Below the pieces are notes generated by a model. It worked only from the letters and a program-made list of their open reading frames with translations, ran no database searches and was not told where the DNA came from. 64,000 bases of DNA. Origin: a virus (taxonomy: Duplodnaviria > Caudoviricetes). Of this stretch, positions 19,115 through 55,109 are shown in pieces. Location of the stretch: positions 64,001 through 128,000 of the IMG/VR virus record IMGVR_UViG_3300028603_000018; one strand, written 5' to 3'. The position numbers and the translations under genes are program-made. Every line of letters starts with the position of its first letter. Within the stretch, counting starts at the first letter, position 1.

Positions 19115-19990
19115 TTAGAAATCTTGAGTATTGGTTTCGGGATAAGCTCTATTAGGACCCCAAATAATTCTTACACCACCATTTTTCTGAACATGTGTGG
19201 TGGCTGTTCTTGAAAAACCGCCCATGCCATGAATACTTGTTCCATTAATAACTGAACCTGATGACGTTATAATATTACTAGTGACAACACCATCAGGTCC
19301 TTTTCCTCTGATTCCTACACCACCACCACCTGCGCCACTACCACCCTGTCCAGCTCTTGCTGGGAGATTACCAGAGCCACCAGTTTGGTTAATATTACCA
19401 CTTCCACCTCTTTCAGAATACCCACCACCACCTCCGCCTTTTAGTACTGCGGAGCTAGCTTGAGGGCTATTTTGAGAACCTCCTGCACCACCATTTCCAC
19501 CACCAAAATCTATCCCAGTGGTTCCAGATATATTATAAATCGCATACGTTCCTCCCGCCACTTGTGTAGATGATCCTGATGAGTTACTTCTCCCGCCTTG
19601 ACCACCATTAGCTACCATAAAGGCCGGGAGAGCTACATCACCATTATCATCATCATTGTTTATTATAGCGATACTGGAATGCCCTCCTGCTCCTCCATGT
19701 CCGTTTGTAGCGCCCTGATAACCAGCTCCTCCAACAACGACTTCAACTTTTCTACTGGTAGGAACGTCAACTTTAGCAACCCAACAAAGCGCGCCACCAC
19801 CACCAGACCCAACAGAACCAGTAGTCCGAGTACCACCTCCACCTCCACCTCCACCTACTGCTACAGCAGAGAAGGAGGTAATTCCTTCAGGAAATTCAAA
19901 AATATAAGTGCCGGGTTCAATGAATTCTACTTGACCGCTTAAACCATCGTCGAGAGGAGGGAGTAATCCTACCAATAAATCTTTACTCAT
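19115..19990 (-). CDS. Glycine-rich putative adhesin / fibre accessory (MSKDLL family)
   Basis: MSKDLLVG start, F.FPEGITSFSAVAVGGGGGG, Gly-rich loops and C-terminal GGVRIIWG..RAYP; paralogue of 53327-54173. Confidence 0.6.
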   Translation of the reverse strand: MSKDLLVGLLPPLDDGLSGQVEFIEPGTYIFEFPEGITSFSAVAVGGGGGGGGTRTTGSVGSGGGGALCWVAKVDVPTSRKVEVVVGGAGYQGATNGHGGAGGHSSIAIINNDDDNGDVALPAFMVANGGQGGRSNSSGSSTQVAGGTYAIYNISGTTGIDFGGGNGGAGGSQNSPQASSAVLKGGGGGGYSERGGSGNINQTGGSGNLPARAGQGGSGAGGGGVGIRGKGPDGVVTSNIITSSGSVINGTSIHGMGGFSRTATTHVQKNGGVRIIWGPNRAYPETNTQDF

Positions 19991-20021
19991 AACTTTTAAT
20001 ATCTATAAAATATTTCAATAA

Positions 20022-20528
20022 TTAAGCAATAAAGTCATCAGCACTTAACTTCTCTACACCAATATGAGTATTACCAGGAACAGTTTCTACTTTAGGGATA
20101 TCATCACCTAATTCCTTAGCATTACCTTTATTTTCTTCAGCTCCACTAGGATTAAAACCAGGTAACTTATCATTAGAAGGCAGTCCCATTAACATATTAC
20201 CGATCTGTTCAGCAAAGCCTTTAAACGCAGCAGAGTTCTCACCCTCTTTCTCCATCTTCATTAGGTCAAGTTCTTGCTTGCTAAAGTCATTAATCAATCC
20301 AGCTAAGGATTGATATGACATCGCGCGAGACATGTCTAAATTCTGCATTCCTTTATTAATTAGCATCTTTCTTAAATTCTGAGAAAGTTCTAATCGTTCA
20401 GTAGGACTAAACTCTGGGGACAGTAAAGTAGAGAAATCTAATTCAGGCACAGGTTCTTTTTGCTTACCAGGTTTTCCTTCATCAATTTTAACCATTGAAT
20501 CAGCAACTGGATTACCTGTAGTATTCAT
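20022..20528 (-). CDS. Hypothetical protein
   Basis: 168 aa with AGGAG RBS. Confidence 0.7.
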   Translation of the reverse strand: MNTTGNPVADSMVKIDEGKPGKQKEPVPELDFSTLLSPEFSPTERLELSQNLRKMLINKGMQNLDMSRAMSYQSLAGLINDFSKQELDLMKMEKEGENSAAFKGFAEQIGNMLMGLPSNDKLPGFNPSGAEENKGNAKELGDDIPKVETVPGNTHIGVEKLSADDFIA

Positions 20529-20565
20529 TTATGCACTCCTTTTATTGTTTGTATGTATATTTAAA

Positions 20566-20585
20566 TATTTCAATCACATATCACC
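20566..20585 (+). promoter_or_regulatory. Putative early promoter
   Basis: TATTTCAATCACATATCACC (core CATATCAC at 20577-20584). Confidence 0.55.
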
Positions 20586-20715
20586 TTAGTGTCAGTAATC
20601 AATACTCATTGAGGTAATTGCTAATGAAATAAGCTAACAACTAAAAATATTGTCTTCGTATAAGGATTTCTAAGCATATGATACTTCACTTAAAGGAGCT
20701 TTATATAGGACCGTT

Positions 20716-21216
20716 ATGTTTAACTGGCTAAGGTCAAAGATAAAAACGAAGCGTAAGAAAATCATTATTGATGAAGTTCATGATAAAGAAATAGATGTTT
20801 ATACAAAAACACTTGTTCTCTTTGAGCTTCTTGGTAAAGAACACTTCCGTATTTTCTATACTCAACACTTTCTGTTTGATCTATACTTACCTAATGCAAA
20901 GGAGTTAGTTAAACTACTTAGGGAGTTAAATAGAACTGTTGAAAATAAACGCCCTATTAACGAAAACCGTTTATCATTTCCTCTAAATAATTTTGATAAT
21001 GATAGTTTCTTTTATCAAGATGAAAGTTACTTAAATAAATTTAACTATTTAGAGGCTATCAAAAAAGAAGTTATTAAACTTATAACAAATGTACAAACCT
21101 ATCAGAGTTCTGATGAAGATCTCATTCTCCCCACTAAGGAGTATTATGAAAGGAACTTGTATTCCGTTATTTCTGATTTACAGTCCTTTGCTGAACTGAT
21201 TATCAGAAGAGTGTGA
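20716..21216 (+). CDS. Hypothetical protein
   Basis: 166-aa ORF with AGGA RBS. Confidence 0.65.
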   Translation: MFNWLRSKIKTKRKKIIIDEVHDKEIDVYTKTLVLFELLGKEHFRIFYTQHFLFDLYLPNAKELVKLLRELNRTVENKRPINENRLSFPLNNFDNDSFFYQDESYLNKFNYLEAIKKEVIKLITNVQTYQSSDEDLILPTKEYYERNLYSVISDLQSFAELIIRRV

Positions 21217-21249
21217 TGACTTCAACATTTCATGGATTAACTTACGTCT

Positions 21250-21672
21250 ATGCAGAAGCGAAGCAAAAATACGCAACTCAATAGGCTACTTACCTCTAAA
21301 GATAAAAATGCTTATTCAGTAACAGGCATGAAAGGTGTCTTAGCACACATCTTTCGTAAGTATCTGTCGAGATTAAAAGTTGATGAACCTAACTGGTCAT
21401 TAAAGATTAATCAATACATTAAGAAATACGAACATGAAGGTATTTCTAAACGACAAAGGTCGAGTATTGGTAATAACCTCACAAAAGCCTTATCCGCAAG
21501 AGAGATGTCTTGGATTACATTTCTAAGAGGTCTTAACTTTCTAGGCGCTATTAAAATTGAATTTACAGTAAAAGCAACTTTTCACAATAATCGAGTTATC
21601 GAAGAACATGTGGAGTTTACTTATGACGAAACAGAAGTGAAATTTGACTTTGAAGAACAGGAAAGGAAATAA
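21250..21672 (+). CDS. Conserved basic jumbo-phage protein
   Basis: 140 aa; GVLAHIFR and GNNLTKALS..EMSWITFLRGL segments resemble conserved phiKZ-like proteins. Confidence 0.6.
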   Translation: MQKRSKNTQLNRLLTSKDKNAYSVTGMKGVLAHIFRKYLSRLKVDEPNWSLKINQYIKKYEHEGISKRQRSSIGNNLTKALSAREMSWITFLRGLNFLGAIKIEFTVKATFHNNRVIEEHVEFTYDETEVKFDFEEQERK

Positions 21673-21674
21673 AA

Positions 21675-22268: not shown

Positions 22269-22278
22269 AGAATATATT

Positions 22279-22321: not shown

Positions 22322-22348
22322 ATAAAAATTGAATTTCGTAACATGGTA

Positions 22349-32966: not shown

Positions 32967-35228
32967 ATGTCTGTGTCTAATCTAGACAAAGCATTTAATA
33001 TTAGTATTCTCTATCTAACACCATTGAATCTAAGAGGCTTAGGATTAATCGATACACTGGATACTTACGATGTAAATGGTGAGTTCAGTGATCGTGGTCT
33101 TTACTCTATTGATTACTTTGGTCCAGTAGGAGATCTACGACGTTCTCGTCGACTTGCATATATTGATATCAAGATGGAGGTTATTCATCCTCTTATCTAT
33201 AAATCCTTAGTAAAACTAAAAGGCTTTTACGAAGATATTATCCTAGGTAAGAAATATGCTATTTGGAATAAACTCACTAAAGACTTCGAACCAGCAGATG
33301 CATTAACTGGTCAAACTGGTTTTAATTTCTTTCTTAATCACTGGATGGATATTGATCTCGTTAGAAATAAGAGTACAGCTAGAAACGAGAGAGTTACTTT
33401 TATTGAGAATAATAAAAGTAAAGCACTTACTAATAAAATCCTAGTTATTCCAGCAGGTATTAGGGACATGACAGTAGGTGCAGATGGTAGACCAGTTAGT
33501 GATGAGATCAATAATATCTACCGTCGATTAATTGGGGTATCAAACACTATTACTGAAGCAGCTATTGAACACAACCCAGAACTCTTTGATAATTCTCGAT
33601 TACGATTACAATTAGTCTTTAATGAGTTATATGAGTATATTACCCAATTACTTAAAGGAAAAAAGAAACTCATTACAGGGAAGCTAACCTCACGTAGAAT
33701 CCATAATGGGACTTCAAACGTTATTAGTGCTTATATCCCTACAGTAAAGCGCTTAGGTGAGCCAGGATCTATCTCAGTTAATAATACCATTGTAGGATTA
33801 CAACAATTCTTAGTCTCTATTGGTCAAACAGCTAAGTATTATATTAAGAATGGTCCATTAAAAGAAGTATTCATCTCTCCTGACCTACCAGCTCGACTCA
33901 TTAACAAAAAGACACTAGAGCAAGAAGAAGTCGATATCTCTATTGAAGCTTATGATTACTGGATGTCAAATGAAGGTCTTGATAGAGTACTCAGTGAATT
34001 TGCTAATGGTAATATCAGACACCAGCCTGTTGAGATTGAAGATCATTATGTCGCTTTGATTTATAAAGGACCTGATAATACTTTTAAAATCTTCTACGAT
34101 ATTAGAGAATTACCTGCTAACTTCTCTAAGAAGTATGTTAGTCCTATTACGCTATTAGAACTCCTATACCTCTCTGTTTATGAGACTTCAGCACAATACC
34201 CAGCCTTCACTACTCGCTATCCCGTATCAGGAGATGGCTCAATCTATCCTTCTTTCTCTTATGTTAAAACAACAGTGAAGTCTGAGAAGAGATATCCTCT
34301 AAATGAAGTATGGCAAAAAGACGATACTCTACCTATTGCTTTTGAGTTCCCTTTACTTAATTCGAGTTTCTACGATACTCTGACTCCACACACTTCGAGG
34401 CTTGCTGGTCTCGGCGCTGATTATGATGGTGATAACGCCTTAGCCCTTATTTATAAGGGATAATTCAAGAAAAGTGTATAACACCTTATCCTAGTAGTAT
34501 GAAAGTCGTTAAAAACTTTTATAACTTATATAGATAATGTCGAAGCTTTTACTAATAAAAATACTCAAAGTAATTTTATTAACCATATACATTTTTCATT
34601 ATTATTCCTTATTTATATTACGTCACCTATTAGTAGAAATACTAATACAATAAACCTCTTTAATTGACGGGAAAAGACTGTTAAAGTCTATCTACCAAGC
34701 TATGCATTGGAAACAACATAGTGGCTGAACTAATCACTCAGGTAAGGTAATAAAGATAGAACTGGTTTAATCCGCAGCGAAGCTCCTAGAGATACTTTCT
34801 ATAAGTATACGGAGTGCGTTCAACGACTAATGAAAGGCGTGTGTTAATTATAACACTAAACCGAGTAAAGTAGCGCCTAGTGGTAGGGTGTGTAGATTGA
34901 GAATGGGTCTACACAGTAAAACCCTTTAAAGCGAAATGGGAGGCACCTGACTGCTATTGTTAGAATAGTAAAAGGTGAAGATATAGTCTGAGCGTCTAGG
35001 GAAAGCCTAGAGTAGTAGTTATCTTAACTACGGGTATAGATTAACGAGCTATACTGAACATAACTGAGAATGTCATTTAATGCTTTATATACCGATGAAG
35101 CAAAAGAAGAAATACGGAAATTCTTAACTGAACCTAGAGCATATTTAAATACTAATGGTGAATTAAGAATGAGTGCTTCTTTCCCCACTATTGATTTAGT
35201 ACTCTATAACCTAACTTCTAGGAAGTAG
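32967..35228 (+). CDS. rpoC: Virion RNAP beta' subunit (phiKZ gp180-like), spliced: join(32967..34433,35067..35228), 542 aa
   Basis: GLYSIDYFG, TRYP and LGADYDGD catalytic motif. Exon 2 (RMSFNALYTDEAKEEIRKFL...LTSRK*) restores ADYDGD-RM, homologous to NADFDGD-QM. Confidence 0.88.
34434..35066 (+). mobile_element. Group I intron (633 nt, no intact homing endonuclease) in vRNAP beta'
   Basis: 5' exon ends in U (GGTGAT) and pairs with IGS GTCACC 34622-34627 (U.G wobble). P AATTGACGGGAAA 34662, Q AATCCGCAGC 34769, R GTTCAACGACTA 34818, S AAGATATAGTC 34978; terminal G at 35066. Confidence 0.9.
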
Positions 35229-38200: not shown

Positions 38201-39998
38201 ATCAATCCAGTAGAAGACGCTAAGCAAATTGATGCTTTGTCTTATACAGGTTCAGGTGGTCGTAGTAGTCGTTCTATGACTAAAGAGACGCGTCTTTATA
38301 CTGATAAGGATCAAGGTCTAGTTTCTGAATCTACGGTTGATTCTGCTAAAGTAGCTATTAATAACTACAGTTCAGCAAAGCCTAAGTTAACTAGTGTACG
38401 TGGTACTTATGAGCAATTCAATTTAGAAGAAGATGGTGTAGGTAGCTTAATTAGTACTGCTGCCTCATTATCTCCTTACGTGCTGTACGATGATTAACAA
38501 TTAAATAATATTTGTATATTGTTTAACTAGTCCACTTAGTTAGTAATAACTAATGTGAATGCTTCTTAATTGCTGGGAAAGGCTTAGAGCTAAAGTAACC
38601 ACTGCGAGACGAAAGTCAAAGCCAAGGTTTGAAAATACTTTAGATTGCTCAATCAGCAGCGGAGATTCTACGTCTTATTATTTATAGTAAGATATGAATA
38701 GCGTTCAACGATCAATCCCTTATCAGGATGTAGGTCACAAGTGTGATCCAAACAGAAGCCTTCCTAATCACTAGGAAGAAGATATGATCTAGACATCTAG
38801 GGAAAGCCTAGAGCTGCAAGTAAAGTTGCGGGTTAGTCCTAACGAGACTAATTGAATACAATCGGGAAAAAGGGTCTCCTTTATCGGGGTCCAGCACGGT
38901 CATGGAATTGCATGTACAGGGTATACTGCTCCTGTAGTTAGGACAGGTAAAGAAGCTAGCTTAGCTCAACAAACTAGTGAAGTGTTTGCTAAAGCTGCTG
39001 AACAAGACGGTGAAGTTATCTCTGTTAAACCAGAAGGTATTATTGTTCGCTACGCAGATGGTAGTGAAGAAGGCTATCCTTGTGGGAAAGTCTTTGGTAA
39101 TAGTGCTTCATTATCTTTTCCTTTTAACATTGTAAGTAATGTTAGTAAAGGAGAGGTATTTAAAGCAGGAGATATTCTCACGTATAATACGGAGTTCTTC
39201 ACTAAAGATACATTAGCTAGAAATACTGTTGTCTGGAAGAATGCTGTGCAAGTAAACGTAGCTTTAGTTGAAGTACCTTCTACTTATGAAGATGCTTCAG
39301 CCATTACTCAACGCTTAGCTAGTAAACTTACTTCTAAGATCTCAGAACCTATTAACATCACTGTTCGGTTTAACCAAGCTATTCATGACTTAGTTAAAGT
39401 AGGTGATAAAGTTAAAGCTGATGACCATCTTTGTGTTATTGAAGATGAAGTTACAGCAGGTAGTGATCTTTTCGATCAGGACTCCTTAGATAACTTACGC
39501 ATTCTGCGCTCTCAAACACCTCGTGCTAAAGTCGATGGTGTTGTAGATAAGATCGAGGTCTTCTATAATGGCGAGCTTGAGGAGATGTCAGAATCATTAG
39601 CTGAAGTAGCGATGGCTGCTGATAAACGTTTAGCTAAAGAGTTATCTTCAGTAGGTAAGAAGCCCATGACAGGTTCTACCTTAGGAGAGAGCTATCGTAT
39701 TGAGGGTAATGTTTTACAGTTAGATGAACTTGTTATTCGTGTTCATGTTACTGAAGACAAAGGGATGGGTAATGGTGATAAAGCCGTATTTGCTAACCAG
39801 TTAAAAACTATTATCTCTGAAGTATTACCTGATCCTGTTCAAACAGAATCTGGCGTAGAGGTAGATGCTTTATTTGGTATTAAGTCAGTCGGTAACCGTA
39901 TCGTTAACTCACCTTACGATATTGGTATTGATGCTAGACTCATGACTAAAGCAACTGAGCGAGCTATTGCTGCTTATACCACTCCTATTAAAGGTTGA
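35237..39998 (+). CDS. rpoB: Virion RNAP beta subunit (phiKZ gp178-like), spliced: join(35237..38494,38865..39998), 1463 aa
   Basis: DGTFRINGVKY, ESTVDSAKVA and GNGDKAVFANQLKT motifs. Splicing gives SPYVLYDD-GKRVSFIGVQ, homologous to RpoB PFLEHDDANRALMGANMQ. Confidence 0.88.
38495..38864 (+). mobile_element. Group I intron (370 nt, ORF-less) in vRNAP beta
   Basis: Exon ends in U (GATGAT). P AATTGCTGGGAAA 38568, Q AATCAGCAGC 38651, R GTTCAACGATCA 38703, S AAGATATGATC 38779, P3 GCTTCT/AGAAGC. Terminal G 38864 rejoins the reading frame. Confidence 0.9.
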
Positions 39999-43552: not shown

Positions 43553-44233
43553 CTAATCAACGCGTTCAAAAACTGGTCTCCAACATCGGTATAATGTATA
43601 AGCACCACCACTATTAATGACATTAGTAGCACTTGCTTTGTCATAAGGTCTAATATCCGTAATACTTGGGGTGCTCCAGCCATAACCTATAATAAAAGCT
43701 TGATTCTCGTTATTAGCGTTTACTTCTCTACACCAAAAAGATTGCTCTCTAGCATTTACACTATTGGCTGCTAGATTAGCGTATTTTGGTCCTGTATAAG
43801 TATACCCCCAACCATTATATACGGAAGCTGATAAAATTGGTAAAAATAATCTGCAAAATTCACTATGGTTAGGTTCTAACTTCATTGCATTTACATAACT
43901 AGGTAGGCTATGGGTTTCATCACTTACTCTAATAGCCCTGCAAATATATTTTACACCAGCTATCTCTATCTCTACTCCATGGATGAGACCTCTGCTATTT
44001 AACGCGTTCCAAGTTACAGATTGATAAACGTTAGAACTGGGTATATATAATTGCTTATCATCTAAAGTAAAAGATAACCAACTACTACTATTTAAACTAG
44101 TTCCACCACTTAAACCAAAATGATTGACTAAGCTAGCGTTAGTCATTAAACCACCAACTTGACCATGATACATGTAAGGGACTTTTATCCTATCCCCTCC
44201 ATCTACTGTTTTTATTAATAGTTCTTTACTCAT
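43553..44233 (-). CDS. Putative fibre/virion protein, phiKZ gp131-family-like (MSKELL family); start ATG 44233
   Basis: MSKELLIK; G..LN..SWL.F.LD.K.LYIP...VTW..L...GL..G...KY..R; C-terminal WRPVFE; paralogous to the C-terminal half of 51727-53313. Confidence 0.55.
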   Translation of the reverse strand: MSKELLIKTVDGGDRIKVPYMYHGQVGGLMTNASLVNHFGLSGGTSLNSSSWLSFTLDDKQLYIPSSNVYQSVTWNALNSRGLIHGVEIEIAGVKYICRAIRVSDETHSLPSYVNAMKLEPNHSEFCRLFLPILSASVYNGWGYTYTGPKYANLAANSVNAREQSFWCREVNANNENQAFIIGYGWSTPSITDIRPYDKASATNVINSGGAYTLYRCWRPVFERVD

Positions 44234-44302: not shown

Positions 44303-45247
44303 TTACCACGTAGCTAAATCAATACCTTCTGGCGGTGTATACTCAAACCATTTATTTTGATAGGCGATTGGAGATGATGTACTGCCGCCATATGTGTATA
44401 TTTTATTATTATAGTGAAATAATAATGGAGAACTTAGTGGTTTACCATTAAGGTGAGGATGTACTGCATCATTTCTTAATGTTATATCTGTGAAAGTTAA
44501 AGTAGTTAAATCTAATTTAGTGAAGTTACTATCAAACAAATATAAGTTCTTACCGACTTGAACGTAACCGCAATTATTTTGATTAATCGCATTAGTAAAA
44601 TTAATAGCCGTAAAAGTTTCAGTTAGATGATTAAATAGATAACCTTCCCTAGTAGAAGCAGAGGCTCCCGTTCCTAAGAGATAAAAATCATTACCTAACC
44701 TAGCATTTACAGAAGGTTGAAAAAAATAAGGCCATTCTGTTAATGTAGTAAAGGTAAGACTAAACGTATCTAGATTTAACTTAGCTATTCTTTTTAATGC
44801 GCTGTTAAAGAGATATAAAATATTTCCAAATTGCACACCAGGAACATAAGAAAAGTCTCCTAAACCAACTATTTGTCTGGTTGTCAGTTGTGCTGTATTT
44901 AAATCGATTTCATAGTAAGTATTAGGGGTATAGACTCTGGGGTATGTTAATGTTGAATCGTCATCTGTTATTAGCCTAGAACCACTGAGTGCTTTACCTG
45001 TTCCTTCAGGGTCGTTAAAGAAACTCCAGTTATTTGATGGGATGTGATAAATTGATACGTATCTAGGGGGATCTATGCCATAACCCCTATACCCTCCTCG
45101 CATCACTAAATATTCACCTTTACTCCATGAGAGTGTTATAGAAGTACCTGTACATATTGAGTCAGGACTGCTTTGCATCTCAGTAGCTTGACGCCACCCC
45201 CCCTCCATCTTGTTAGATGAGGTGGTTATTAAGAATTCTCTACTCAT
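44303..45247 (-). CDS. Kelch-like beta-propeller protein (MSREFL family)
   Basis: Repeats YLVMRGGY, GNILYLF, GNDFYLLG, GKNLYLF and NNKIYTYGG; ends WFEYTPP. Confidence 0.7.
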   Translation of the reverse strand: MSREFLITTSSNKMEGGWRQATEMQSSPDSICTGTSITLSWSKGEYLVMRGGYRGYGIDPPRYVSIYHIPSNNWSFFNDPEGTGKALSGSRLITDDDSTLTYPRVYTPNTYYEIDLNTAQLTTRQIVGLGDFSYVPGVQFGNILYLFNSALKRIAKLNLDTFSLTFTTLTEWPYFFQPSVNARLGNDFYLLGTGASASTREGYLFNHLTETFTAINFTNAINQNNCGYVQVGKNLYLFDSNFTKLDLTTLTFTDITLRNDAVHPHLNGKPLSSPLLFHYNNKIYTYGGSTSSPIAYQNKWFEYTPPEGIDLATW

Positions 45248-46650: not shown

Positions 46651-49404
46651 ATGGCTACAAGTCCTATCGTACCAACCTATCCCTTTGATCCAACAGGGAC
46701 TGCTGTTAGTAATAGAGTTACTAATGAGCAACATCCCTTAACGGCATCGAATTATAGGGATTACCAATTAATTATTCCGAGATATGCTCCGTTCTATGAG
46801 ACGGGACTTGTCTTGCGTTATCGAGATTTAAGTGGTAATATTCGTCCATTAACATTTGGTATCGATTACTATTTAGGTCACCAGTTTCAATCCGCTAGTC
46901 GTAGTGTTGGTAAGAGTTTATATGGTTCTATCTATATTCTAGATAAAACGCTCACTGGTATCATTATTATTGATAACTACCAAACTATCGGCGGTATGTG
47001 GAATATTGACGAGAATAAGATCGCTGAGATTTTAGCTGATCGAACTCATAATCCACTAATCACAACTTGGGAGCAAGTCAACGACTTACCTGTTTATTTC
47101 CCGCCTATCGACCATCCATGGAATATCTATGACATGGTGGGTATGAGCGATGTTAAAGAAGCGTTAGATAGCATTCAAGATGCTATTCGTGCTAGTGGTG
47201 AAGGTAGTATTGATGACCACATCAATAACCATAACAACCCTCACAACGTAACTAAAGCTCAAGTCGGTCTAGGTAATGTTAATAACTATAACATCGCAAC
47301 AGATGCTCAGACCGTAACAGGTACAGCTACTAATTTATACGTCGTTCCTTCTGGTGTTAGAGCGGCTATTACACAACTCGCTATTACGCCATTAACGACT
47401 CACACTAATAACTTATCAAATCCCCACAATGTGACTAAGGGACAAGTGGGACTTGGTAATGTTAATAACTTTGCTACCGCCACTATTACCGAAACCACTA
47501 TTGGTTCTAGTTCTAGTTTATATACCACACCTGCTGGTGTACGAGGTGCAATTGATGAACTCGTTGCTATTCCGTTAGCTGATCATATTAACGATCAATC
47601 TAACCCTCACCAGGTCAATAAAGCCCAAGTGGGTCTGGGTAATGTGAATAACTACGGTACTGCAAACAATAGTCAGACAATTGATGGTGTAGCAACCGAT
47701 CTTTACGTAACACCTGCTGGATTGAAAGCTGCGCTCGTAGCAGCAGGAACAGGTGGTGGTGGTGGTGAGATTTCTGATCACGTTGCTGATATGAATAACC
47801 CCCACCAAGTCACTAAGACGCAAGTGGGTTTAGGTAACGTAGATAACTATAGTACTGCTACTGTCCAAGAAACTGTTTTAGGTGCTGCAAATAACTTATT
47901 TGTCACACCTGAGGGAGCTTCTGCACTTATTGAGAATTTAGTTGGTACTTCATTGACCAACCACGTTAGTGCTATTAATAATCCTCACCAAGTCACTAAA
48001 GGACAAGTAGGCTTAGGTAATGTAAGTAACTTTGGTACTGCTTCAGTGGCAGAAACACTTGAAGGGACTTCAGAGAATTTATTTACTACGCCTTTAGGAG
48101 TATTTACTTTAGTTAAGAATTTAGCTGAAGATCCTCTTAATGCTCACGTAGCTAATACTAATAATCCTCACAGTGTGACTAAGACGCAAGTAGGATTAGG
48201 CAGTGTTAACAACTATGGTACAGCTACCCCTGCTGAAGCTAGTACAGGTACAGCAAATAACTTATATGTAACACCTGAAGGATTAACTAGCGCTATTAAT
48301 ACTAGAGCTGTTACTCCCTTAAATAATCACCTTAGTGACACTAATAACCCCCACAGTGTAACAGCTGCTCAGATTGGTGCTTACGATCAAGGACAGGTTA
48401 ATACACTTCTTCAATCTAAGTTAAATACTACTGCAACTGCTGCTGACAGTAGTAAGTTAGAAGGTAAGACTTTAGCTGAAATCTTTACTGATGTCGCTGC
48501 TATGACTGTCGATAACAGTAATAAATTAGAAGGTAAAACACTTACTGAAATCAAGGCTGAGATTGGATCTGGAGAAGCTGACGATACAACCCGTTTTGAT
48601 GGTTATACAGTTACAGAATATGCTGATTACATCATTAAACAGAATAAGACACCAGTTTATGATACTATCTTAGCTCCTGTAGGTAATGCTTCTACACCTG
48701 TTGAATACTATATTCCTTTGGATGTAGGTTTCATTGATCCAGTTTCCTCTACTAATGTGCGAGCTGCTCTATATCGTTTTGATTTATTTAGCACTAAAGC
48801 AGAAGAGAAATTGGTAACGAGTTACTATATTTATCAAAAAGGCTCTGTTATTCGCTGGTATGGTAATAATGGTAGTGATATTGTTAAAGGTGTTTATTAT
48901 GCTTTTAGTAGTGATGCTGAAATCATTGATGAAACCACTTTTAATAAAGTATATCTGTACCTGCACTTAGAATATACAGGGTTAGCTGATAGATCTATTC
49001 GTGTTACTCGTTTAGCTGGTGAGAACAGTGGTAAGATTGATCGTGATACATATCCCATCGTACCTACCTTACCATCTGGTGCTTTTGCAGCAAGTGAAGA
49101 TCCTGATATTATTCAGAGCTTTATTGGTCCTCAGGGAGTTGCTGGTGAAGATGGTGAGCAAGGCGTTCCTGGTGTAGGCGTAGAAAGAGAATTAGTCACA
49201 GGCACACTTAATCCTTCAGATTTTATTGAGATAACTGAATTTGATTGGGACAGTGTTATTCAAGCTATGGTATCTACAGTTGCTGATCCTGATGATTATT
49301 TTGATGCTATTTCTAAACTCACTATTATTAGACGCTCAACTAACATTACTGTTACTAACGTTTCAACCGAAACTCTGAACTACCGAATTACAGGTATTAA
49401 ATAA
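46651..49404 (+). CDS. Tail fibre protein 1 (phiKZ gp145/146-like N-terminus) with 7 NPH repeats and a short collagen-like segment
   Basis: YPFDPTG..SNRV.NE.H, IIP..APFY and FPPIDH N-terminal domain; ~61-aa NPHxVTKxQVGLG repeats; GPQGVAGEDGEQGVPG. Confidence 0.75.
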   Translation: MATSPIVPTYPFDPTGTAVSNRVTNEQHPLTASNYRDYQLIIPRYAPFYETGLVLRYRDLSGNIRPLTFGIDYYLGHQFQSASRSVGKSLYGSIYILDKTLTGIIIIDNYQTIGGMWNIDENKIAEILADRTHNPLITTWEQVNDLPVYFPPIDHPWNIYDMVGMSDVKEALDSIQDAIRASGEGSIDDHINNHNNPHNVTKAQVGLGNVNNYNIATDAQTVTGTATNLYVVPSGVRAAITQLAITPLTTHTNNLSNPHNVTKGQVGLGNVNNFATATITETTIGSSSSLYTTPAGVRGAIDELVAIPLADHINDQSNPHQVNKAQVGLGNVNNYGTANNSQTIDGVATDLYVTPAGLKAALVAAGTGGGGGEISDHVADMNNPHQVTKTQVGLGNVDNYSTATVQETVLGAANNLFVTPEGASALIENLVGTSLTNHVSAINNPHQVTKGQVGLGNVSNFGTASVAETLEGTSENLFTTPLGVFTLVKNLAEDPLNAHVANTNNPHSVTKTQVGLGSVNNYGTATPAEASTGTANNLYVTPEGLTSAINTRAVTPLNNHLSDTNNPHSVTAAQIGAYDQGQVNTLLQSKLNTTATAADSSKLEGKTLAEIFTDVAAMTVDNSNKLEGKTLTEIKAEIGSGEADDTTRFDGYTVTEYADYIIKQNKTPVYDTILAPVGNASTPVEYYIPLDVGFIDPVSSTNVRAALYRFDLFSTKAEEKLVTSYYIYQKGSVIRWYGNNGSDIVKGVYYAFSSDAEIIDETTFNKVYLYLHLEYTGLADRSIRVTRLAGENSGKIDRDTYPIVPTLPSGAFAASEDPDIIQSFIGPQGVAGEDGEQGVPGVGVERELVTGTLNPSDFIEITEFDWDSVIQAMVSTVADPDDYFDAISKLTIIRRSTNITVTNVSTETLNYRITGIK
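47215..48385 (+). repeat. Tandem ~180-190-nt coding repeats (7 NPH units)
   Basis: HxxxxxNPHxVTKxQVGLGNVxN...ATxxE...GT..NLYVTP.G repeated in the translation; synonymous sites have diverged. Confidence 0.85.
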
Positions 49405-49418
49405 AGGTATAATAAACA

Positions 49419-51635
49419 ATGTCTAATCCGATTATCGTAAGGTATGATTTAGATAGGACTGGTATCAGTCCAGATAACAGAGTGGTCGGTGAAATCCATG
49501 AATTATCTAATCGACGTATTCGACCCATTTCACCACACTGTGGTCCTTTCTTCTTAGATAACCTTCTTGTTAGAGATAGTTTGACTCAACAAGAGTTAGT
49601 AATGGGAGTGGACTGGGAGCCTTCAGAACTCTACACGGTGGCTTCCTTAGATTTAGCTAAAGAGATCTATGCTCTAATCTTAATTACTAATCCTGATGTA
49701 TCTAACTCTGTAGAGATTGATTATCAAGTAGTGGGTGGTGAGTATAGCTTTAACACGTATGCTATTGTAAAGATGATCGAGGATCTAGAACTCGATAATC
49801 GTCCTGTAGATTGGCCTAACATTATTGGTAAGCCAGATGAATTCACACCAGCACCTCACTTACATGACGTAGGTGATACTTTTGGTTGGGAATATACAGT
49901 ACAAGCGCTTTACAATATCCGTGACGCTATTCTGATGGGTGATAGGGCTTCTCATGATCAAATTTTAGATTATATTGATAGTCAAATCACCTCTTTTGAT
50001 GATTTGGTTAGTAATCACATTAATAACACCAATAACCCTCACAGTGTAACTAAAGCTCAAGTAGGGTTAGGTAATGTGAGTAACTTTAGTACTGCTACAC
50101 CCGCCCAAACATCAACAGGTACAGCTACTAACCTATTTGTCACGCCTGAGGGTGTAACTTTAGCTATTACTAATAGAGCAGTTACACCTTTAAACACTCA
50201 CATTAGTAATACTAGCAATCCGCATAACGTAACCAAAGCACAAGTAGGATTAGGTAGTGTTAATAATTACAGTACAGCCACACCAGCAGAAACCAATACA
50301 GGTACAGCAAGTAACCTGTATGTAACACCTGCTGGTGTACTTAATGCTATTAACACTAGGGCGGTTACGCCGCTTAATGCCTTTATCGCACGAAGGGACA
50401 ACCCTCATGTTGTGACGAAGCCTCAAGTAGGGTTAGGTAACGTAGATAACTTTGCTACAGCAAACAATAGTCAGGCAGTGGCAGGTACAGCTACTAACTT
50501 ATTCATTACTCCAGCGAGTTTGAAGGCAACGATTGATAGTAGAGTTCCAGCTGGTATGGTGGATCACGTCACTAATATCAATAACCCTCACCAAGTGACA
50601 AAAGCACAAGTGGGATTAGGATTAGTTGATAACTATGGCACAGCTTCATCTAGTCAAGCTGTGACTGGGACAGCTACTAACCTCTTTGTAACTCCAGCAG
50701 GTCTACGCGCCGCAATTGATAATCGTGTGCCTTCTGGTTTTGCTACTCACCTTACTAATACTAATAATCCACATAGTGTAACAAAAGCACAAGTGGGTCT
50801 TGGTAATGTGAATAACTACGGCACGGCTACACCAGCAGAGGCTAACACAGGAACAGCAAGTAACCTGTATGTAACACCTGCTGGTCTGTTAAATGCTATT
50901 AATACTAGAGCAGTTACACCATTAACAACTCACACGAGTAATACCAGTAACCCTCACAACGTAACTGCTGCTCAGGTAGGCGCTTATACTAAATCAGAGA
51001 TCGATACCATGGTCTCTAATTTAAGTAATTCTTACCTGCCTTTAGCAGGTGGTTCCATGACTGGCAGGATTACTAACACACCTAATGCTGCAACTCGTGT
51101 TCAGATGGATTCCAGTCCAACAACATTAGGAGCCATCCTTTTCGATGCTGGCACAACAGCTACAGGAGATGCTGAGGTTGCTGGTTTCTCTTTCCGAGCT
51201 GGTACTAACATTGTTAAGATGGGTCTTAATAATACGGGTGTTTTTGGTTGGGGTGGTGGTACAAGATCGCCTTGGTCTTTCTATTCGTTAAACAACGGTG
51301 ATGTTGTCGCATCAGGTGATGTTACAGCTTACTCTGATCCTCGTTTAAAAGAAAATGTGAAACCTATTCTTAATGCTCTAGATATTAATAGAAAATTAAG
51401 TGGAAAGTATTTCATATGGAAAGACTTACCTCATGTAAGAAATAAAGCTGGTACGAGTGATCTAGGTGTTATGGCTGATGAAGTAGAGGCTGTTCTTCCT
51501 GAAGCAGTTAAAGAGTCTGTTGAGTATGATGGTCAGACTTATAAGACTGTAGCCTATGGAAAAATTGTTCCAGTACTTATTGAAGCCGTTAAGGAATTAG
51601 AGTTAAAAGTATTGCGTTTGGAATCAATGTTATAA
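49419..51635 (+). CDS. Tail fibre protein 2 with 6 NPH repeats and C-terminal peptidase S74 intramolecular chaperone
   Basis: Paralogous N-terminal domain (YDLDRTG.SPDNRV); NPH repeats; GDVTAY|SDPRLKENV...LGVMADEVEAVLPEAV...VAYGKIVPVLIEAVKEL is an S74 domain. Confidence 0.85.
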   Translation: MSNPIIVRYDLDRTGISPDNRVVGEIHELSNRRIRPISPHCGPFFLDNLLVRDSLTQQELVMGVDWEPSELYTVASLDLAKEIYALILITNPDVSNSVEIDYQVVGGEYSFNTYAIVKMIEDLELDNRPVDWPNIIGKPDEFTPAPHLHDVGDTFGWEYTVQALYNIRDAILMGDRASHDQILDYIDSQITSFDDLVSNHINNTNNPHSVTKAQVGLGNVSNFSTATPAQTSTGTATNLFVTPEGVTLAITNRAVTPLNTHISNTSNPHNVTKAQVGLGSVNNYSTATPAETNTGTASNLYVTPAGVLNAINTRAVTPLNAFIARRDNPHVVTKPQVGLGNVDNFATANNSQAVAGTATNLFITPASLKATIDSRVPAGMVDHVTNINNPHQVTKAQVGLGLVDNYGTASSSQAVTGTATNLFVTPAGLRAAIDNRVPSGFATHLTNTNNPHSVTKAQVGLGNVNNYGTATPAEANTGTASNLYVTPAGLLNAINTRAVTPLTTHTSNTSNPHNVTAAQVGAYTKSEIDTMVSNLSNSYLPLAGGSMTGRITNTPNAATRVQMDSSPTTLGAILFDAGTTATGDAEVAGFSFRAGTNIVKMGLNNTGVFGWGGGTRSPWSFYSLNNGDVVASGDVTAYSDPRLKENVKPILNALDINRKLSGKYFIWKDLPHVRNKAGTSDLGVMADEVEAVLPEAVKESVEYDGQTYKTVAYGKIVPVLIEAVKELELKVLRLESML
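50016..50990 (+). repeat. Tandem coding repeats (6 NPH units)
   Basis: Same unit as in fibre 1; a 33-nt identical block occurs at 50304-50336 and 50853-50885. Confidence 0.85.
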
Positions 51636-51726: not shown

Positions 51727-53313
51727 ATGAGTTTGCCTGATTGGACTGATGATCCCTTAACTCCTCTTTCAATTGGAGACATCAGGGACGAATGGGGCGC
51801 AACATTTGGGAACCCTAGACTTAGTTGGTTTTATGCAAACGGTCCTTATGTTGATGCTAATGCTAAAGGATATCCATTTGGTGTAGAGACAAATATCCCT
51901 ACCTCTGGGCGTATTAGTATTAGTAATTTCTACGGTAGTGCAGCTGATGTAGCTATTTGTAATAGAACAGGTAAATGGGCTACTTATATTGCACGAAATA
52001 CCAACTCTGGTGGTTTAGGTAGACTTAACCCTATCAACTATGTTTGGAGAGGTTTAAGATTTCCTATTTTCCCTTTCTTGACAGATTATCCTGCTCCCTT
52101 TACATCTACTGAAAATCTAATCTTTAAAACACCTGACGTTACCCAAGGTCAATTAGCGTTATACGGTTTAGAAGATGCTAACGTTGTTTGTATTGGTCCT
52201 GATGATTATCTTTATATCAACTTCTATAGCTATACTGACCACATTGTAAGACCTGGTATCTCCATTCTTAACCCTGTTACAGGTCAGTTCACTGCCTATC
52301 ATGGACAGAACTATATTGAGAACATGGATGGTACTGGTGGCTTAGGCGGAGAGATGGTAGTCTACGCAGGTAAAGATCTCCCAGCTAGTGGTGTATTCTT
52401 TCCTGGTTATACTTACGACGGCTCTCCTCACTATTGGGTGAGGATGGAGGTGAGATTAAGACGTAGGAATGACACATTTGCTTGGGGTAATTCAGCTGGA
52501 TTAATGTATCGTGGCGAGCATAATGAGAACAATGTTATCTCTTACTCTGGTATCTCATCTTTAGTTGGCTTTAACTCTGGTACACTAATTAATAATAAAG
52601 ATAGCGGTTGGTTAAAAGTAACGTTAAATAATAAAGAGTTATATGTAGCTAAGAAAAACGTTAGACGAAATGTTACACTATCTCAATTAAACGCAGCTAA
52701 CCTCGTTACAGGCAATAGAACAGTTACTGTCAGAGGAGTTAATTATCGTATTCGATTACTAACTGCTTCTGAATGGGTTTCTTTATTCCCACCTTTATCG
52801 AGAGAGACACTATTAGGTTATTCCGGTGTTAAGTTAGCACAGTTTGAGCAAAGTGAGTTTGTAAGACATACTGAATTAGCTCAAGTAATTACTAAAGGTG
52901 GGTATGATCCTGAATGGCCATTTAACTCTACTCGTACCTTTGATTTCATTCGAAATTATCAGAGTTGGGGTGGTCATGGTGGTGGGTATCTCAGACCAGG
53001 TCATATTCAAAACTTTGTTCCTGGTACAGGTACTATGTATAGTTCCCGCTTATTATGGAACTACGGCTATCCTTTAGCCAGTCTTCTTCAGGATGGTACG
53101 GCTCGTGGGGCTGATGGTGCTCAATGGAAGTGGACTATTAGTGAATCTGAATACTGGGCAGAATTTGAAGAAGGTGCTATTCAACATGGTATTCAGTATA
53201 CTGCTGGTGCTGTAACCATTCCTCCTTCATCACCAAGTCCTATTGGTAGTGGTACATTTACTTCTTCTAGGAACTATGAATTGGGTTGGCGGCCTGTGTT
53301 AGAAGAAATTTAA
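51727..53313 (+). CDS. Putative fibre-tip / receptor-binding protein
   Basis: N-terminal LSIGDIRDEWG...LSWFYANG...IPTSGRISISNFYG motif seen in proteins encoded after S74 fibres; C-terminal gp131-like domain ending GWRPVLEEI. Confidence 0.55.
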   Translation: MSLPDWTDDPLTPLSIGDIRDEWGATFGNPRLSWFYANGPYVDANAKGYPFGVETNIPTSGRISISNFYGSAADVAICNRTGKWATYIARNTNSGGLGRLNPINYVWRGLRFPIFPFLTDYPAPFTSTENLIFKTPDVTQGQLALYGLEDANVVCIGPDDYLYINFYSYTDHIVRPGISILNPVTGQFTAYHGQNYIENMDGTGGLGGEMVVYAGKDLPASGVFFPGYTYDGSPHYWVRMEVRLRRRNDTFAWGNSAGLMYRGEHNENNVISYSGISSLVGFNSGTLINNKDSGWLKVTLNNKELYVAKKNVRRNVTLSQLNAANLVTGNRTVTVRGVNYRIRLLTASEWVSLFPPLSRETLLGYSGVKLAQFEQSEFVRHTELAQVITKGGYDPEWPFNSTRTFDFIRNYQSWGGHGGGYLRPGHIQNFVPGTGTMYSSRLLWNYGYPLASLLQDGTARGADGAQWKWTISESEYWAEFEEGAIQHGIQYTAGAVTIPPSSPSPIGSGTFTSSRNYELGWRPVLEEI

Positions 53314-53326
53314 AACGAGATAGAAA

Positions 53327-54173
53327 ATGAGTAAAGATTTATTGATAGGAGTAGGTGGAGGGGAGGGGGTAGCACCTCCTGGACAGGTTCTTTGGGGAGT
53401 AAATATTGTCAACTCTTACTACGGTCCTAATGGTTTATTCCCCTTTGTTGTTCCTCAAGGCGTTTATTCTATTTGTGCTGTCACAGTGGGTAGGGGTGGT
53501 TATGGACCGGGACATACGAGTGGCAGGACTGCCGCCGGAGGTGGTGGAGGATTATCCTATCGTAATGATATTCCAGTGACTCCTGGCGAAACATTGACTA
53601 TTGACTATTGACTTCAATGCCGAACATGTAGGTATTCGTAGAGATGCTGAATGGTTATGCTATGCTCAATGCAGTGCTGCTAGTAGAACGGGCGGTTTAG
53701 GTGGTAAAAGCCTCTCTGTTATACATACTGGTGGTGGAAATGGTGGTCTCGGCGCGAATAATACAGGCAGTACAGTCCAGCGTTTAGGAGGTGGTGGAGC
53801 TGGGGGGTATACTAGTAACGGCGGAAATGGTGGTGGACATAACACTACTCAGACCACTAGTTTTGATGGTGGTAGTGGAGGTAACTATAATGCTTCATTC
53901 AACACATGTTCTGGTGGATTTGGTGTAACCTTACTGGGATCACGCGTACCTGGATCTAATGGAGTTCCTGTAGGCTCTCCTTACCCTCCTAATGTGAATA
54001 ATACTTCCACTGCACTACGTAACGCTCCTCCTAGAGGTGGTGGTAGATATGGTGGTGGTGCTGCTGTTATTTATAATACTACCTCTGGTAATGTGAATGG
54101 TCAGTCTTCTGGTGGTGTAAGAATTATTTGGGGTGAAGGTAGGTCTTACCCTTATAATGCTTTAGATGTATAA
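53327..54173 (+). pseudogene. Frameshifted Gly-rich adhesin (MSKDLL family); 279 aa if one ATTGACT copy is removed
   Basis: ORFs 53327-53611 and 53601-54173 are halves of one paralogue of 19115-19990; the break falls exactly at (ATTGACT)3. Confidence 0.85.
53593..53613 (+). repeat. Perfect 7-nt tandem repeat (ATTGACT)x3
   Basis: ACATTGACTATTGACTATTGACTTCAATG read directly from the sequence. Confidence 0.95.
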
Positions 54174-54212
54174 GGCATAAATGGGAGGTTAGAAAACCTC
54201 CCATTTATGCTG
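54174..54212. terminator. Bidirectional terminator (GCATAAAT family)
   Basis: GCATAAATGGGAGGTT-AGAA-AACCTCCCATTTATGC, a perfect 16-bp stem. Confidence 0.8.
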
Positions 54213-54283
54213 TACTAAAGAGAATACTAACTAAAACAAAGGAATAAGAGATGTTGATTTCCTTGAGTGTATCCTTCATTTTT

Positions 54284-55109
54284 TTATTCTTCAGGTGTGT
54301 ATTCCCAAATCCTAGCTTCTGGTACATCACCTATTACTATGAAACTATAGAAGTATATCTTTCCGTTTAATACACAAGGAAAGCAACTAGTAGACGATAA
54401 CCACATATTAAAAGGATCAGGAACAGGTATTTCAGTTACTTTATTTGTAACATCATTATACTTATAGAAAGAAGCACCAATAGTACTATTACCAGCTATG
54501 AAATAAATATCATCACCTAACGAACATCCTCTTCCCCATACACCACCGCCAGCATCATTAAACTCCCATTCCTCATCTAGCTCAATATACTCAATTGTTT
54601 CATCTAATAAATTATACTTAGATATTAATTTAATTCTATCAGGCTTAGTTAAATCTACGCGGGGTAAAATACTATATATGTAATTTTTATGCAGAACTCT
54701 TAATACAGGGTTTCTGGGCATAATTATATTTTTATATACTTTAGTATTAGTGCTTAGATTAACTACATCCATAACTTGATCACTTATCGCGTATAAATGA
54801 TTATCAAACACAAAACCATTCCAACTGGGTAAGGTAAATGGATTTGTTAATGCTAAAGATGAAATATGATCTGAAGCATAAGGTTTGATTTTAAGCATTC
54901 CTACGTTAGCTGTAGTCCCACCAATATAACCACCTAATGAATAAATAAACTCACCATCAGTAACAACTCCATACCTATTTCTAGTAAGTAATTGAGTTAT
55001 TGACCAAGCTATCCTCAGATAAATTCTTCTTGATATTGGATCGATGATGAAGTATTTAACACTACCACTCTTCAATCTCGTGAGAACTTATTAATATTTC
55101 TTTAGACAT
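54284..55109 (-). pseudogene. Kelch-like protein (MSKEIL family) with an N-terminal frameshift
   Basis: ATG 55109 reads MSKEILISSHEIEEW*. The Kelch body (DGEFIYSLGGY, DNHLYAI, GDDIYFIAG, NGKIYFY, IWEYTPE) is in the +1 frame, open only from 55087, with a TTG start. Confidence 0.65.

Follow-up and report, generated by a model that had tools for sequence, protein, structure and literature searches.

A single short peptide heads 11 otherwise unrelated binding-type proteins, of four fold classes, encoded on one contig of a phiKZ-like phage. These proteins are probably small accessory adhesins of the virion, in each of which the peptide would be a leader that serves as a plug, followed by a linker and a head, and their repertoire would be switched by slippage. 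The stretch analysed here (the window, 64,000 nucleotides) is part of the 244-kb contig C90, within an assembly of 4.13 Mb; the source phage is uncultured.

An earlier note on this DNA had described five tagged starts in the window, and all five, at 19990(-), 44233(-), 45247(-), 53327(+) and 55109(-), were recovered: in a six-frame translation of the window, they are the only places that fit the regular expression MS[KR][DE][LFI]L[IV], each 1-20 codons from the upstream stop, and the 23/24-nt identity that had been noticed between the 19990 and 53327 starts is correct. The note had also proposed that this and related genomes be searched with the expression. A slightly wider form gives nine strict matches across the whole 4.13-Mb assembly, all nine on C90 and all nine at the starts of open reading frames, versus a chance expectation from residue frequencies of 0.058 on C90, and the reversed pattern, which served as a control, gives none. 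Looser patterns add two further genes of C90, at 33306 (MSKELML) and 32588 (MREILIA), which brings the membership to 11. When N-termini were clustered blind, a cluster of 12 was found on C90, 10 of them real; three other jumbo phages each gave, at best, a spurious cluster of three. None of phiKZ, PhiPA3, FLC9, RP12, Goslar and two complete IMG/VR relatives has the strict tag. The tagged family is therefore confirmed as real, and it is larger than first reported.

Three members in the window are in the ON state. The first (19115-19990, minus strand; 291 aa) has the leader MSKDLLV, an LLPPL linker and a glycine-rich domain that matches Pfam Gly_rich_2 (PF21722, E 3.8e-9), and its PHROG matches are to the C-terminal parts of the longer families phrog_4474 and phrog_863. 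The second (43553-44233, minus strand; 226 aa) joins the leader MSKELLI to a C-type-lectin-like head (phrog_1062, E 3e-19), and the third (44303-45247, minus strand; 314 aa) joins MSREFLI to a Kelch-type head; 44 nt past the ATG of this gene, a census of homopolymers located a G7 run (45197-45203, minus strand; C7 on the plus strand), which encodes the Gly-Gly of the linker. The two members that had been reported as frameshifted are indeed broken and represent the OFF state: one (53327-54173, plus strand), with the leader MSKDLLI and a glycine-rich head, is split into 94 + 190 codons by a perfect heptanucleotide repeat, (ATTGACT)x3, at 53593-53613 (plus strand), and the other (54284-55109, minus strand), with the leader MSKEILI, has a stop after codon 15 (55062-55064), its Kelch head lying in the +1 frame (54284-55075). 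Four of the five genes flank the tail-fibre locus, as had been stated, around two genes at 46651-51635 (plus strand) that encode proteins of 917 and 738 aa (phrog_2163 and phrog_13857, E 1e-99 to 1e-160). Next to these lies an untagged 528-aa paralogue (51727-53313, plus strand), in which the same lectin-like domain stands behind a long N-terminal part. The window also contains beta-subunit genes of the phage's own non-canonical RNA polymerases.

The constraint on the tag acts at the level of the protein rather than of the DNA, because its Ser, Leu and Lys codons vary synonymously (AGT/AGC/TCT; TTA/TTG/CTA/CTG/CTT) and the family genes have unrelated DNA before them, with no motif in common over the upstream 100 nt. 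Mean identity is 73% in the tag; the bodies, even within one fold class, are ~27-38% identical or undetectable to one another by BLAST. The order of parts is the tag, then a Pro/Gly linker, then the body. In the one member that was modelled, the 44233 protein (AF2, pTM 0.79), residues 1-17 have a pLDDT < 50 ahead of the folded head, and its tag and linker are thus predicted to be disordered. The heads comprise three Laminin_G_3, four Kelch, two Gly_rich_2 or phrog_4474 and two CTLD-like domains, and where they match PHROG families, the aligned part is internal or C-terminal in long tail, baseplate and virion proteins. The bodies are of unrelated folds, as the earlier note had it, and over the whole family they fall into four classes (C-type-lectin-like, Kelch, LamG and Gly-rich).

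The lectin-like body had been called gp131-like, for which gp83-like should be read: the C-type-lectin-like profile matches phiKZ only in gp83 (E 9e-10) and has no match in gp131-135. In a fold search with the 44233 head, 42 chains had a Z of at least 5, and the chains listed were almost all of the CTLD/FGE type; the best Z values, for Lcl (7.2), TvpA (7.1) and Mtd (6.5), are middling, and Foldseek gave an E of 0.085 or weaker. The likeness to TvpA and to Mtd of Bordetella phage BPP-1 would lie in the putative C-type-lectin-type fold of this head. As a candidate, the target of a diversity-generating retroelement was rejected: a search of the assembly for the reverse transcriptase family PF00078 found matches on contigs C87 and C102 and none on C90, and variation is therefore not by such an element.

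The tag may be this phage's own version of a more widespread leader, M-x-E-x-L-L, followed by a linker, to which MREILI is an exact fit and MSKELLI fits with one extra residue. A profile search returned 2411 representatives, among which 84 short forms have E at position 3 in 39/84 and L, I, M or V at position 6 in 55/84, and a related leader is carried by many metagenomic phage homologues. In phiKZ, gp83 and gp298 start with MFELLLS; PhiPA3 has three leader genes, with starts of the MFELLLS and MLELMLS types, among them its gp298 orthologue (54% identical), which starts with MFEILLS. The link between the tag and MFELLLS is a fuzzy motif, and if it is accepted, the leader would be older than this phage. 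The likeness between the tagged proteins and gp298 and gp83 of phiKZ and gp360 of PhiPA3 extends to a leader of the same pattern, a short linker and a Kelch or lectin-like head, and also to genes that are scattered rather than confined to a tail module. The differences are that this phage has 11 such genes in four fold classes, against two in phiKZ and three in PhiPA3; that the leader is one residue longer here; and that phiKZ, judged from the N-termini alone, has no homopolymer codons after the leader. The Kelch heads have marginal BLAST scores against gp298 (E 0.002 and 0.98), with the fold class alone in common. In the literature on gp83/gp298-type proteins, no mention was found of a leader common to them.

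What the leader might do is suggested by two sets of published observations. A 2025 preprint reported phiKZ gp298 to be a low-abundance virion protein, citing published mass-spectrometry data for its presence in the particle, and required for adsorption to particular isolates; a transposon screen showed adsorption to some clinical isolates to depend on gp298. Neither gp83 nor gp298 is mentioned in the phiKZ cryo-EM atlas, and in the preprint on the structure of Goslar the terms Kelch, lectin, propeller and receptor-binding do not occur. In other phages, receptor-binding proteins are known to dock via a heptapeptide, as with MALxxLV in KP34 phages and with the 7- and 11-mers of K1-5/SP6; that such peptides bring the proteins to a shared branching site was validated by deletion and swapping (PMC6872550, PMC13352976). 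The tag resembles the hepta- and undecapeptides of K1E, K1-5 and SP6, MALxxLV of KP34 and RBP2 of KP32 in being a short peptide, of as few as seven residues, with conserved hydrophobic positions on otherwise unrelated binding proteins. The K1-5/SP6/KP34 proteins, however, are large trimeric podophage tailspikes that sit on a T4gp10-like domain, whereas the chimallivirus proteins considered here are small and of lectin type, with a single domain each, and their docking is putative. Counting against docking, a sequence search of the assembly with one family of the T4 gp9/gp10 type (PF07880, T4_gp9_10_N) gave no match, a distant or different socket being possible, and no candidate for a partner came out of a screen of phyletic profiles.

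We infer that the proteins attach to the virion via the leader. Each would consist of a heptapeptide (M-S-K/R-D/E-L-L-I/V), a short flexible Pro/Gly-rich linker and one globular ligand-binding head; the leader would most likely be a plug by which heads of unrelated fold are anchored in the same socket of the virion, probably at the periphery of the tail or baseplate, and the heads would give the phage extra receptor- or surface-binding activities. The proposal in the earlier note that the tag loads interchangeable heads to make a variable repertoire is supported indirectly by the presence of one peptide on unrelated lectin-type heads, by the gp298 phenotype and by the heptapeptide precedent; docking itself, and the fibre repeats as its site, are putative, and the part that tied the genes to a hairpin did not survive (see below).

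The leader might instead direct the proteins to the head, either as a Hoc-like decoration of the outer capsid or for packing inside it, as does the capsid-targeting sequence of the hypervariable internal proteins of T4. The RefSeq note on phiKZ gp83 reads 'structural head protein', and the attachment site could therefore be the head; the sole cultured-phage match of the lectin-like head in a tblastn search falls under a 'Hoc-like head decoration' gene, and the labels on PHROG neighbours read 'head and packaging / virion structural protein'. The S-K-E of the tag also fits the motif at which the phiKZ prohead protease reportedly cleaves, S/A/G-X-E, but cleavage past MSKE would take off only four residues, and although most tags contain S-K-E, two carry D and another has M at P3. 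Heads of the lectin, Kelch and LamG types are better suited to binding on the outside than to internal proteins, four members flank the tail-fibre genes, and the gp298 phenotype is a loss of adsorption, which a capsid decoration could in principle also affect. We consider targeting to the head quite unlikely.

It is highly improbable that the tagged proteins are not in the virion at all, the leader being an element of expression or stability, or of targeting in the cell, for lectin-like proteins whose action would be intracellular or would follow lysis. Starts with MSK- are indeed common and favourable (10 among some 230 C90 ORFs that were tallied), but four of the other MSK/MSR starts lack the [DE]-L-L continuation, and relatives are headed by leaders that do not contain MSK (MFELLLS and MLELMLS). 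Moreover, the tagged proteins have no hydrophobic signal-peptide stretch, and phiKZ gp83 and gp298 both have annotations as structural proteins, the latter with the mass-spectrometry data cited above.

Attachment via the leader, which we favour, would be combined with control over the presence of the head. The earlier note had recorded frameshifts without seeing that they occur at repeats of the hypermutable type near the junction of tag and body (the break in the 55109 gene, which has no repeat there, is an exception, and this gene may be no more than a pseudogene). C90 has 15 G/C runs of at least 6 nt, of which five are found no further than 60 nt past the ATG of a family member (binomial P = 4e-10), and all three runs of at least 9 nt are located 30-34 nt after a tag ATG. 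The C10, G10, C9, G7 and G6 runs lie 30-44 nt past family ATGs and within the reading frame. The repeats after the tag appear, from their sequence and placement, to be a contingency-type switch that turns single genes ON and OFF. Slippage by one unit, at these runs at or near the junction of leader and head or at the 7-nt repeat inside one head, would bring leader and head into one frame or take them out of it. Since the gain or loss of a unit shifts the frame of the head, each gene would be an independent switch and a population would contain mixed repertoires of adhesins; a high rate of switching is likewise presumed.

A comparison with a near-identical contig of 210,701 bp bears on this switch. 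There, the 53327 gene is intact (P0014, 279 aa) and identical to both pieces found here, and the residues at the join, TLTIDFNAE, are those expected from two copies of ATTGACT. Two homopolymer-bearing genes, 42695 and 45247, lack the tag in the gene calls of that contig (the latter is called only from M24 or V48), with 100% identity in the shared residues. Hence, between two independent genomes and as gene calls in a protein database rather than as DNA, 3/3 comparable repeat-bearing genes differ in state, the proteins being otherwise 100% identical.

An alternative explanation is that the broken members are decaying pseudogenes, or errors of sequencing or assembly at homopolymers, and that the runs are by-products of Gly/Pro linkers without any switch. 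In its favour, the sole form on record for the cluster of the 55109 gene, broken without a repeat, is a leaderless one of 263 aa, the database records no ON form of the 33306 and 137510 genes, long homopolymers provoke errors in certain sequencing chemistries, and the comparison is one of two genomes. We nevertheless regard it as unlikely. The genes broken at tracts are each exactly one unit out of frame, and the downstream frames of broken genes are open for 190-263 codons, with matches to family profiles from end to end; the linkers are built with GGG and CCC, which are rare (8.1% of Gly and 8.1% of Pro codons, respectively); a change in the copy number of a 7-nt repeat is atypical of base-calling, and the other genome encodes the exact two-copy product; finally, the three comparable genes all differ in state.

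Slippage might also occur in the RNA, with a phage RNA polymerase slipping on the C9-C10 and G10 runs to give a fixed mixture of messages, which would amount to a control of dosage and not to a heritable switch. Transcriptional slippage is known for other polymerases at runs of 9-10 identical bases, a range into which these runs fall, and this phage has non-canonical RNA polymerases of its own. This mechanism would leave the 7-nt repeat and the G6 and G7 runs unexplained, heritable differences between genomes exist, and we find it very improbable.

The switch proposed here, at the level of the DNA, has counterparts elsewhere. In Neisseria, about a dozen scattered paralogous opa genes encode adhesins and have a conserved leader-coding region with a slippage-prone repeat; these genes switch independently to give combinatorial surface repertoires. 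The tagged genes resemble them as scattered adhesin genes with a conserved leader and a slippage-prone repeat, but the opa genes are bacterial, their leader is a secretion signal, their repeat is a pentamer and their bodies are homologous, in contrast to the four unrelated folds found here. Phase-variable receptor binding by phages is not known experimentally outside Campylobacter phages. Hypermutable polyG tracts in the genes of these phages were described by Sorensen et al. (2021, Cell Rep 35:109214, as cited in PMC10877375), and, as far as that citation goes, the likeness to the Campylobacter Fletchervirus consists of G/C homopolymers in surface-binding genes and of ON/OFF variants in the phage population. 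In the present case, the phage is of another family, several genes are involved, the tracts occupy one defined position, the junction of leader and head, poly-C and a 7-nt repeat also occur, and switching is deduced from two genomes.

A broader interpretation, which is possible but on balance doubtful, would be that M-x-E-x-L-L(-S) is a widespread plug, in phiKZ-type and many uncultured phages, that loads small accessory adhesins of lectin-like type onto a socket of the virion, and that in this phage it has been elaborated into 11 cassettes with slippage switches of their own, a counterpart of opa that would make adsorption stochastic and combinatorial. The choice of host by giant nucleus-forming phages is poorly understood. 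A common leader, if it exists, would explain how scattered accessory proteins reach the particle, and would provide a simple sequence rule for finding such proteins in other phages. Repeats at the junction, if they act as proposed, would extend phase-variable receptor binding beyond the Campylobacter phages, and switching may let the phage vary the bacteria that it binds. The combinatorial switching of many genes also bears on how host range is read from genomes, since a gene that looks broken may be one that is switched off.

The hairpin at which the tagged genes had been said to end is not specific to them. Between the convergent 53327 and 55109 genes lies a GCATAAATGGGAGG...CCTCCCATTTATGC stem-loop (54175-54210), which is one copy of a genome-wide element: C90 has 46 occurrences of the GCATAAAT 8-mer or of its complement, and most of these copies are intergenic GCATAAATAGGGAG...CTCCCTATTTATGC stem-loops distributed over the genome, as befits a generic terminator-like element.

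The five genes that an earlier note had reported in the window, at positions 19990, 44233, 45247, 53327 and 55109, are all real, with the coordinates that it gave, and they belong to a larger family. When the N-terminal pattern used to define them, MS[KR][DE][LFI]L[IV], was slightly widened and searched in six frames across the whole assembly, all nine matches lay on C90, the contig that includes the window (C90 positions are window positions plus 64,000), and all were the starts of open reading frames; 0.058 matches were expected on C90 from residue frequencies, and the reversed pattern gave none. Looser patterns contributed the genes at C90 33306 (leader MSKELML) and 32588 (leader MREILIA), which brings the family to eleven, five of them those of the note. 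Blind clustering of all first-ATG N-termini gave a C90 cluster of 12, of which 10 are real; applied to phiKZ and to two complete relatives from IMG/VR, the same procedure gave clusters of three members at most, which were spurious.

Conservation in this family begins at the ATG: no motif is common to the 100-nt stretches that precede the leaders, and no shared promoter or ribosome-binding-site motif was found there. Within the leader, the codons differ synonymously (AGT, AGC or TCT for serine; TTA, TTG, CTA, CTG or CTT for leucine), so selection acts on the peptide, for which the mean pairwise identity is 73%. The 23/24-nt identity between the starts at window 19990 and 53327 is genuine, yet the two glycine-rich proteins concerned are only 38% identical across their first 88 residues; the remaining pairs with the same fold are 27–32% identical or go undetected by BLAST.

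The leader is followed by a short Pro/Gly/Ser-rich stretch (SSTPPP, GVGGGEG, LLPPLDDG, ERGGGED) and then by one globular domain, or body. Naming the members by the C90 position of their starts, the body is Laminin_G_3 in 32588, 137510 and 151725; glycine-rich (PF21722 or phrog_4474) in 83990 (window 19990) and 117327 (window 53327); and a domain of about 200 residues ending WRPxxE in 33306 and 108233 (window 44233). Kelch bodies were assigned by Pfam in 42695, by a sub-cut-off Kelch_6 Pfam match only in 109247 (window 45247) and 119109 (window 55109), and by structure look-alikes (TM 0.64–0.68) in 197848. The PHROG matches for all of the bodies are to internal or C-terminal portions of long proteins of the tail, baseplate or virion. 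No homologue of the Kelch member 109247 was found beyond its own cluster in a search of 5.8 billion proteins, and a database search with 137510 returned only its own shortened 140-aa call.

The AlphaFold2 model of the 108233 protein, based on an 18-sequence alignment, had a pTM of 0.79, with residues 1–17 at a pLDDT below 50. Foldseek found no significant match to this model. The list from an exhaustive structure aligner, uniform with middling Z scores, consisted almost wholly of C-type-lectin-like and formylglycine-enzyme-type folds, among them Legionella Lcl (Z 7.2), the DGR variable protein TvpA (Z 7.1) and the BPP-1 tropism determinant Mtd (Z 6.5). The label 'gp131-like', previously attached to this body, is not right because the profile of the lectin-like domain matches gp83 alone in phiKZ. 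C90 also encodes an untagged lectin-like domain in a 528-aa protein (window 51727–53313) and, outside the window, eight such domains in tandem, without the MSK leader, in a 2179-aa protein (C90 156580–163116, minus strand), which is probably the 2172-aa top match of the profile search (P0039). Variation of the lectin-fold bodies by a DGR was considered and rejected since no reverse transcriptase is encoded on C90.

A census of C90 found 15 G or C runs of at least 6 nt. The three longest each lie 30–34 nt past the ATG of a family member (C10 in 42695, at C90 42725–42734; C9 in 137510, at 137541–137549; and G10 in 197848, at 197882–197891); a G7 run (109197–109203) lies 44 nt past the ATG of 109247, and a G6 run (33348–33353) 42 nt past that of 33306. 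Of the 15 runs, five are thus in the 60-nt stretches after family starts, which together make up 0.27% of C90 (binomial P = 4e-10). The runs consist of GGG and CCC codons, each of which accounts for only 8.1% of its own codon family on C90; the runs themselves look to be under selection. In 33306 and 137510, leader and body are out of frame at the run, and a G7 (one G more) or a C8 (one C fewer), respectively, would restore their join; past the run, 229 and 215 codons, respectively, stay open, with end-to-end matches to their families. Of the two window genes described as frameshifted, 53327 is interrupted by a perfect repeat, (ATTGACT)x3, at window 53593–53613. In 55109, codon 15 is followed by a stop, and the break has no repeat. 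The sole form of 55109 on record is leaderless, and the gene may be a plain pseudogene.

Exact-sequence look-ups found the same proteins on two further contigs, of 249,759 and 210,701 bp, for which tract lengths were inferred from protein records only. In those records, the 249,759-bp contig has the same forms as C90 wherever the genes are comparable. On the 210,701-bp contig, the 53327-type glycine-rich gene is intact, its 279-aa product being identical to both C90 pieces and reading ...TLTIDFNAE... at the join, the exact product of two ATTGACT units. There, the Kelch genes 42695 (268 aa, from M36) and 109247 (291 aa from M24, or 267 aa from V48) are called from internal starts only, again with the shared residues identical. 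By these gene calls, three repeat-bearing genes thus differ in state between two independent genomes, with no amino-acid difference in the proteins as recorded. These differences look like those of slippage-prone contingency loci, for which the polyG tracts in genes of Campylobacter-infecting Fletchervirus phages (Sorensen et al. 2021) offer a phage precedent. A possible alternative to such a switch in the DNA is transcriptional slippage on the long runs.

Leaders of a wider type occur in other phages. A profile search of 1.84 billion representatives with the lectin-like domain gave 2411 proteins, many of which have 200–260 residues and a domain that begins at residue 10–40. Their N-termini follow a fuzzy rule, M-x-E-x-L-L and then a Lys/Gly/Pro-rich linker (for example, MNELLLSS, MLELLLGS, MKEVLLTT, MAEEILIGGGGN and MSEILLPPPPDS); in 84 short forms, position 3 is E in 39 and position 6 is L, I, M or V in 55. 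The last two leaders, from the metagenomic homologues P0030 and P0031, suggest that linkers coded by Gly or Pro homopolymers are present in other phages too. A stricter leader pattern selected two phiKZ proteins: gp83, which has 504 aa and combines lectin-like and Kelch parts, and gp298, a Kelch protein of 335 aa. Each starts MFELLLS and is annotated as structural. PhiPA3 has three such leaders: two lectin-like proteins start MLELMLS and MFELLLS, and gp360, the gp298 orthologue (54% identical), starts MFEILLS. In Goslar, neither the leader nor the lectin-like domain was found. Judged by where it occurs, the leader is older than the source phage. None of phiKZ, PhiPA3, RP12, FLC9 and two complete IMG/VR relatives has the strict MSK[DE]LL form, and the source phage therefore has an expanded local dialect of the wider motif. 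In the strict-tag scan of IMG/VR, the pattern was absent from six of ten contigs, the other four being left out; one contig had two overlapping matches on opposite strands, one of them with TGA as its second codon, and Xoo-sp14 had a single match, which is at chance level. In still other phages (proteins P0113, P0140, P0149 and P0152; loci L028, L029 and L031), the lectin-like body is preceded by another N-terminal module, a well-known one (MRTRFLRG...GELS.D.E...R.HDG.T.GG), so this body has been exchanged among two or more kinds of attachment module.

A transposon-mutagenesis preprint from 2025 reported that orf298 of phiKZ is dispensable on PAO1 and that gp298, a virion protein of low abundance, is required to adsorb to particular isolates. 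In this relative, these experiments support the idea that small leader-bearing Kelch proteins are strain-specific adsorption factors. It is established that receptor-binding proteins can dock via N-terminal peptides of as few as seven residues, such as the MALxxLV peptide of KP34 phages and the 7- and 11-mers of K1E/K1-5/SP6 (PMC6872550), and such docking has been validated through deletion and swapping (PMC13352976). Taking the adsorption role of gp298 together with heptapeptide docking, we read the leader as a plug that would fit a common socket on the particle. A search for the socket with PF07880 gave no match, and no protein fitted a phyletic profile of presence in phiKZ and PhiPA3 and absence from Goslar, FLC9 and one IMG/VR phage. 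The phiKZ structural atlas makes no mention of gp83 or gp298, and the Goslar structure preprint none of Kelch, lectin, propeller or receptor-binding. Attachment at a site on the phage head is possible because the RefSeq note on phiKZ gp83 calls it a 'structural head protein'. Precedents exist for each ingredient of the proposed plug-and-switch arrangement: docking by heptapeptides, switching by polyG tracts, and the accessory role of gp298 in adsorption. In the literature consulted, we found no description of the leader common to gp83/gp298-type proteins and thousands of metagenomic phage proteins, of its expansion to eleven genes and four folds in one phage, or of slippage repeats placed at the junction of leader and body.

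The earlier note had also placed a GCATAAAT hairpin at or near the end of each tagged gene. A role for this hairpin as a cassette boundary was rejected: GCATAAAT or its complement has 46 half-sites on C90 versus about 17 expected, most of which form the arms of GCATAAATAGGGAG...CTCCCTATTTATGC stem-loops located 3' of genes, on both strands and genome-wide, with near-identical examples at window 19066–19102, 44285 and 54175–54210. The stem sequence is unusually conserved, and the stem-loop is probably the standard terminator-like element of the phage. Being genome-wide, it is uninformative on the tagged family.

C90 (244,062 bp) has a G+C content of 35.8% versus about 65% in the other large contigs of the 4.13-Mb assembly, which marks it as a phage contig that was placed in the bin of an unrelated bacterium; none of 52 genomes from the bacterial family of the bin carries the phage. 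The top cultured-phage matches of the virion protein at window 55744–57054, at 31–38% identity, are phiKZ-like jumbo phages with Burkholderia, Ralstonia, Xanthomonas and Pseudomonas hosts. The window also has split genes for a multisubunit RNA polymerase, along with genes for a head maturation protease and for a tail protein of 2236 aa that contains a transglycosylase domain. The source phage is of the chimallivirus type and uncultured. No near-identical DNA turned up when 22 kb of the window was compared by megablast with 50,697 phage records, and a search for related loci in viral, metagenome and genome collections, using two proteins of the family and two conserved neighbours, gave relatives at 31–33% identity or none. 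Five other low-GC contigs in the bin (C38, C39, C57, C87 and C93; 37–40% G+C) probably represent one or more other phages; C87 encodes a reverse transcriptase. LamG proteins encoded on some of these low-GC contigs have different N-termini and were placed outside the tagged family. Finally, two plus-strand group I introns (Rfam RF00028), at window 34605–35012 (60.8 bits) and 38508–38813 (65.6 bits), sit in the gaps (about 34.5–35.2 and 38.5–39.0 kb) between the open frames of RNA polymerase beta-type genes at window 32967–34463, 35237–38497 and 38982–39998.
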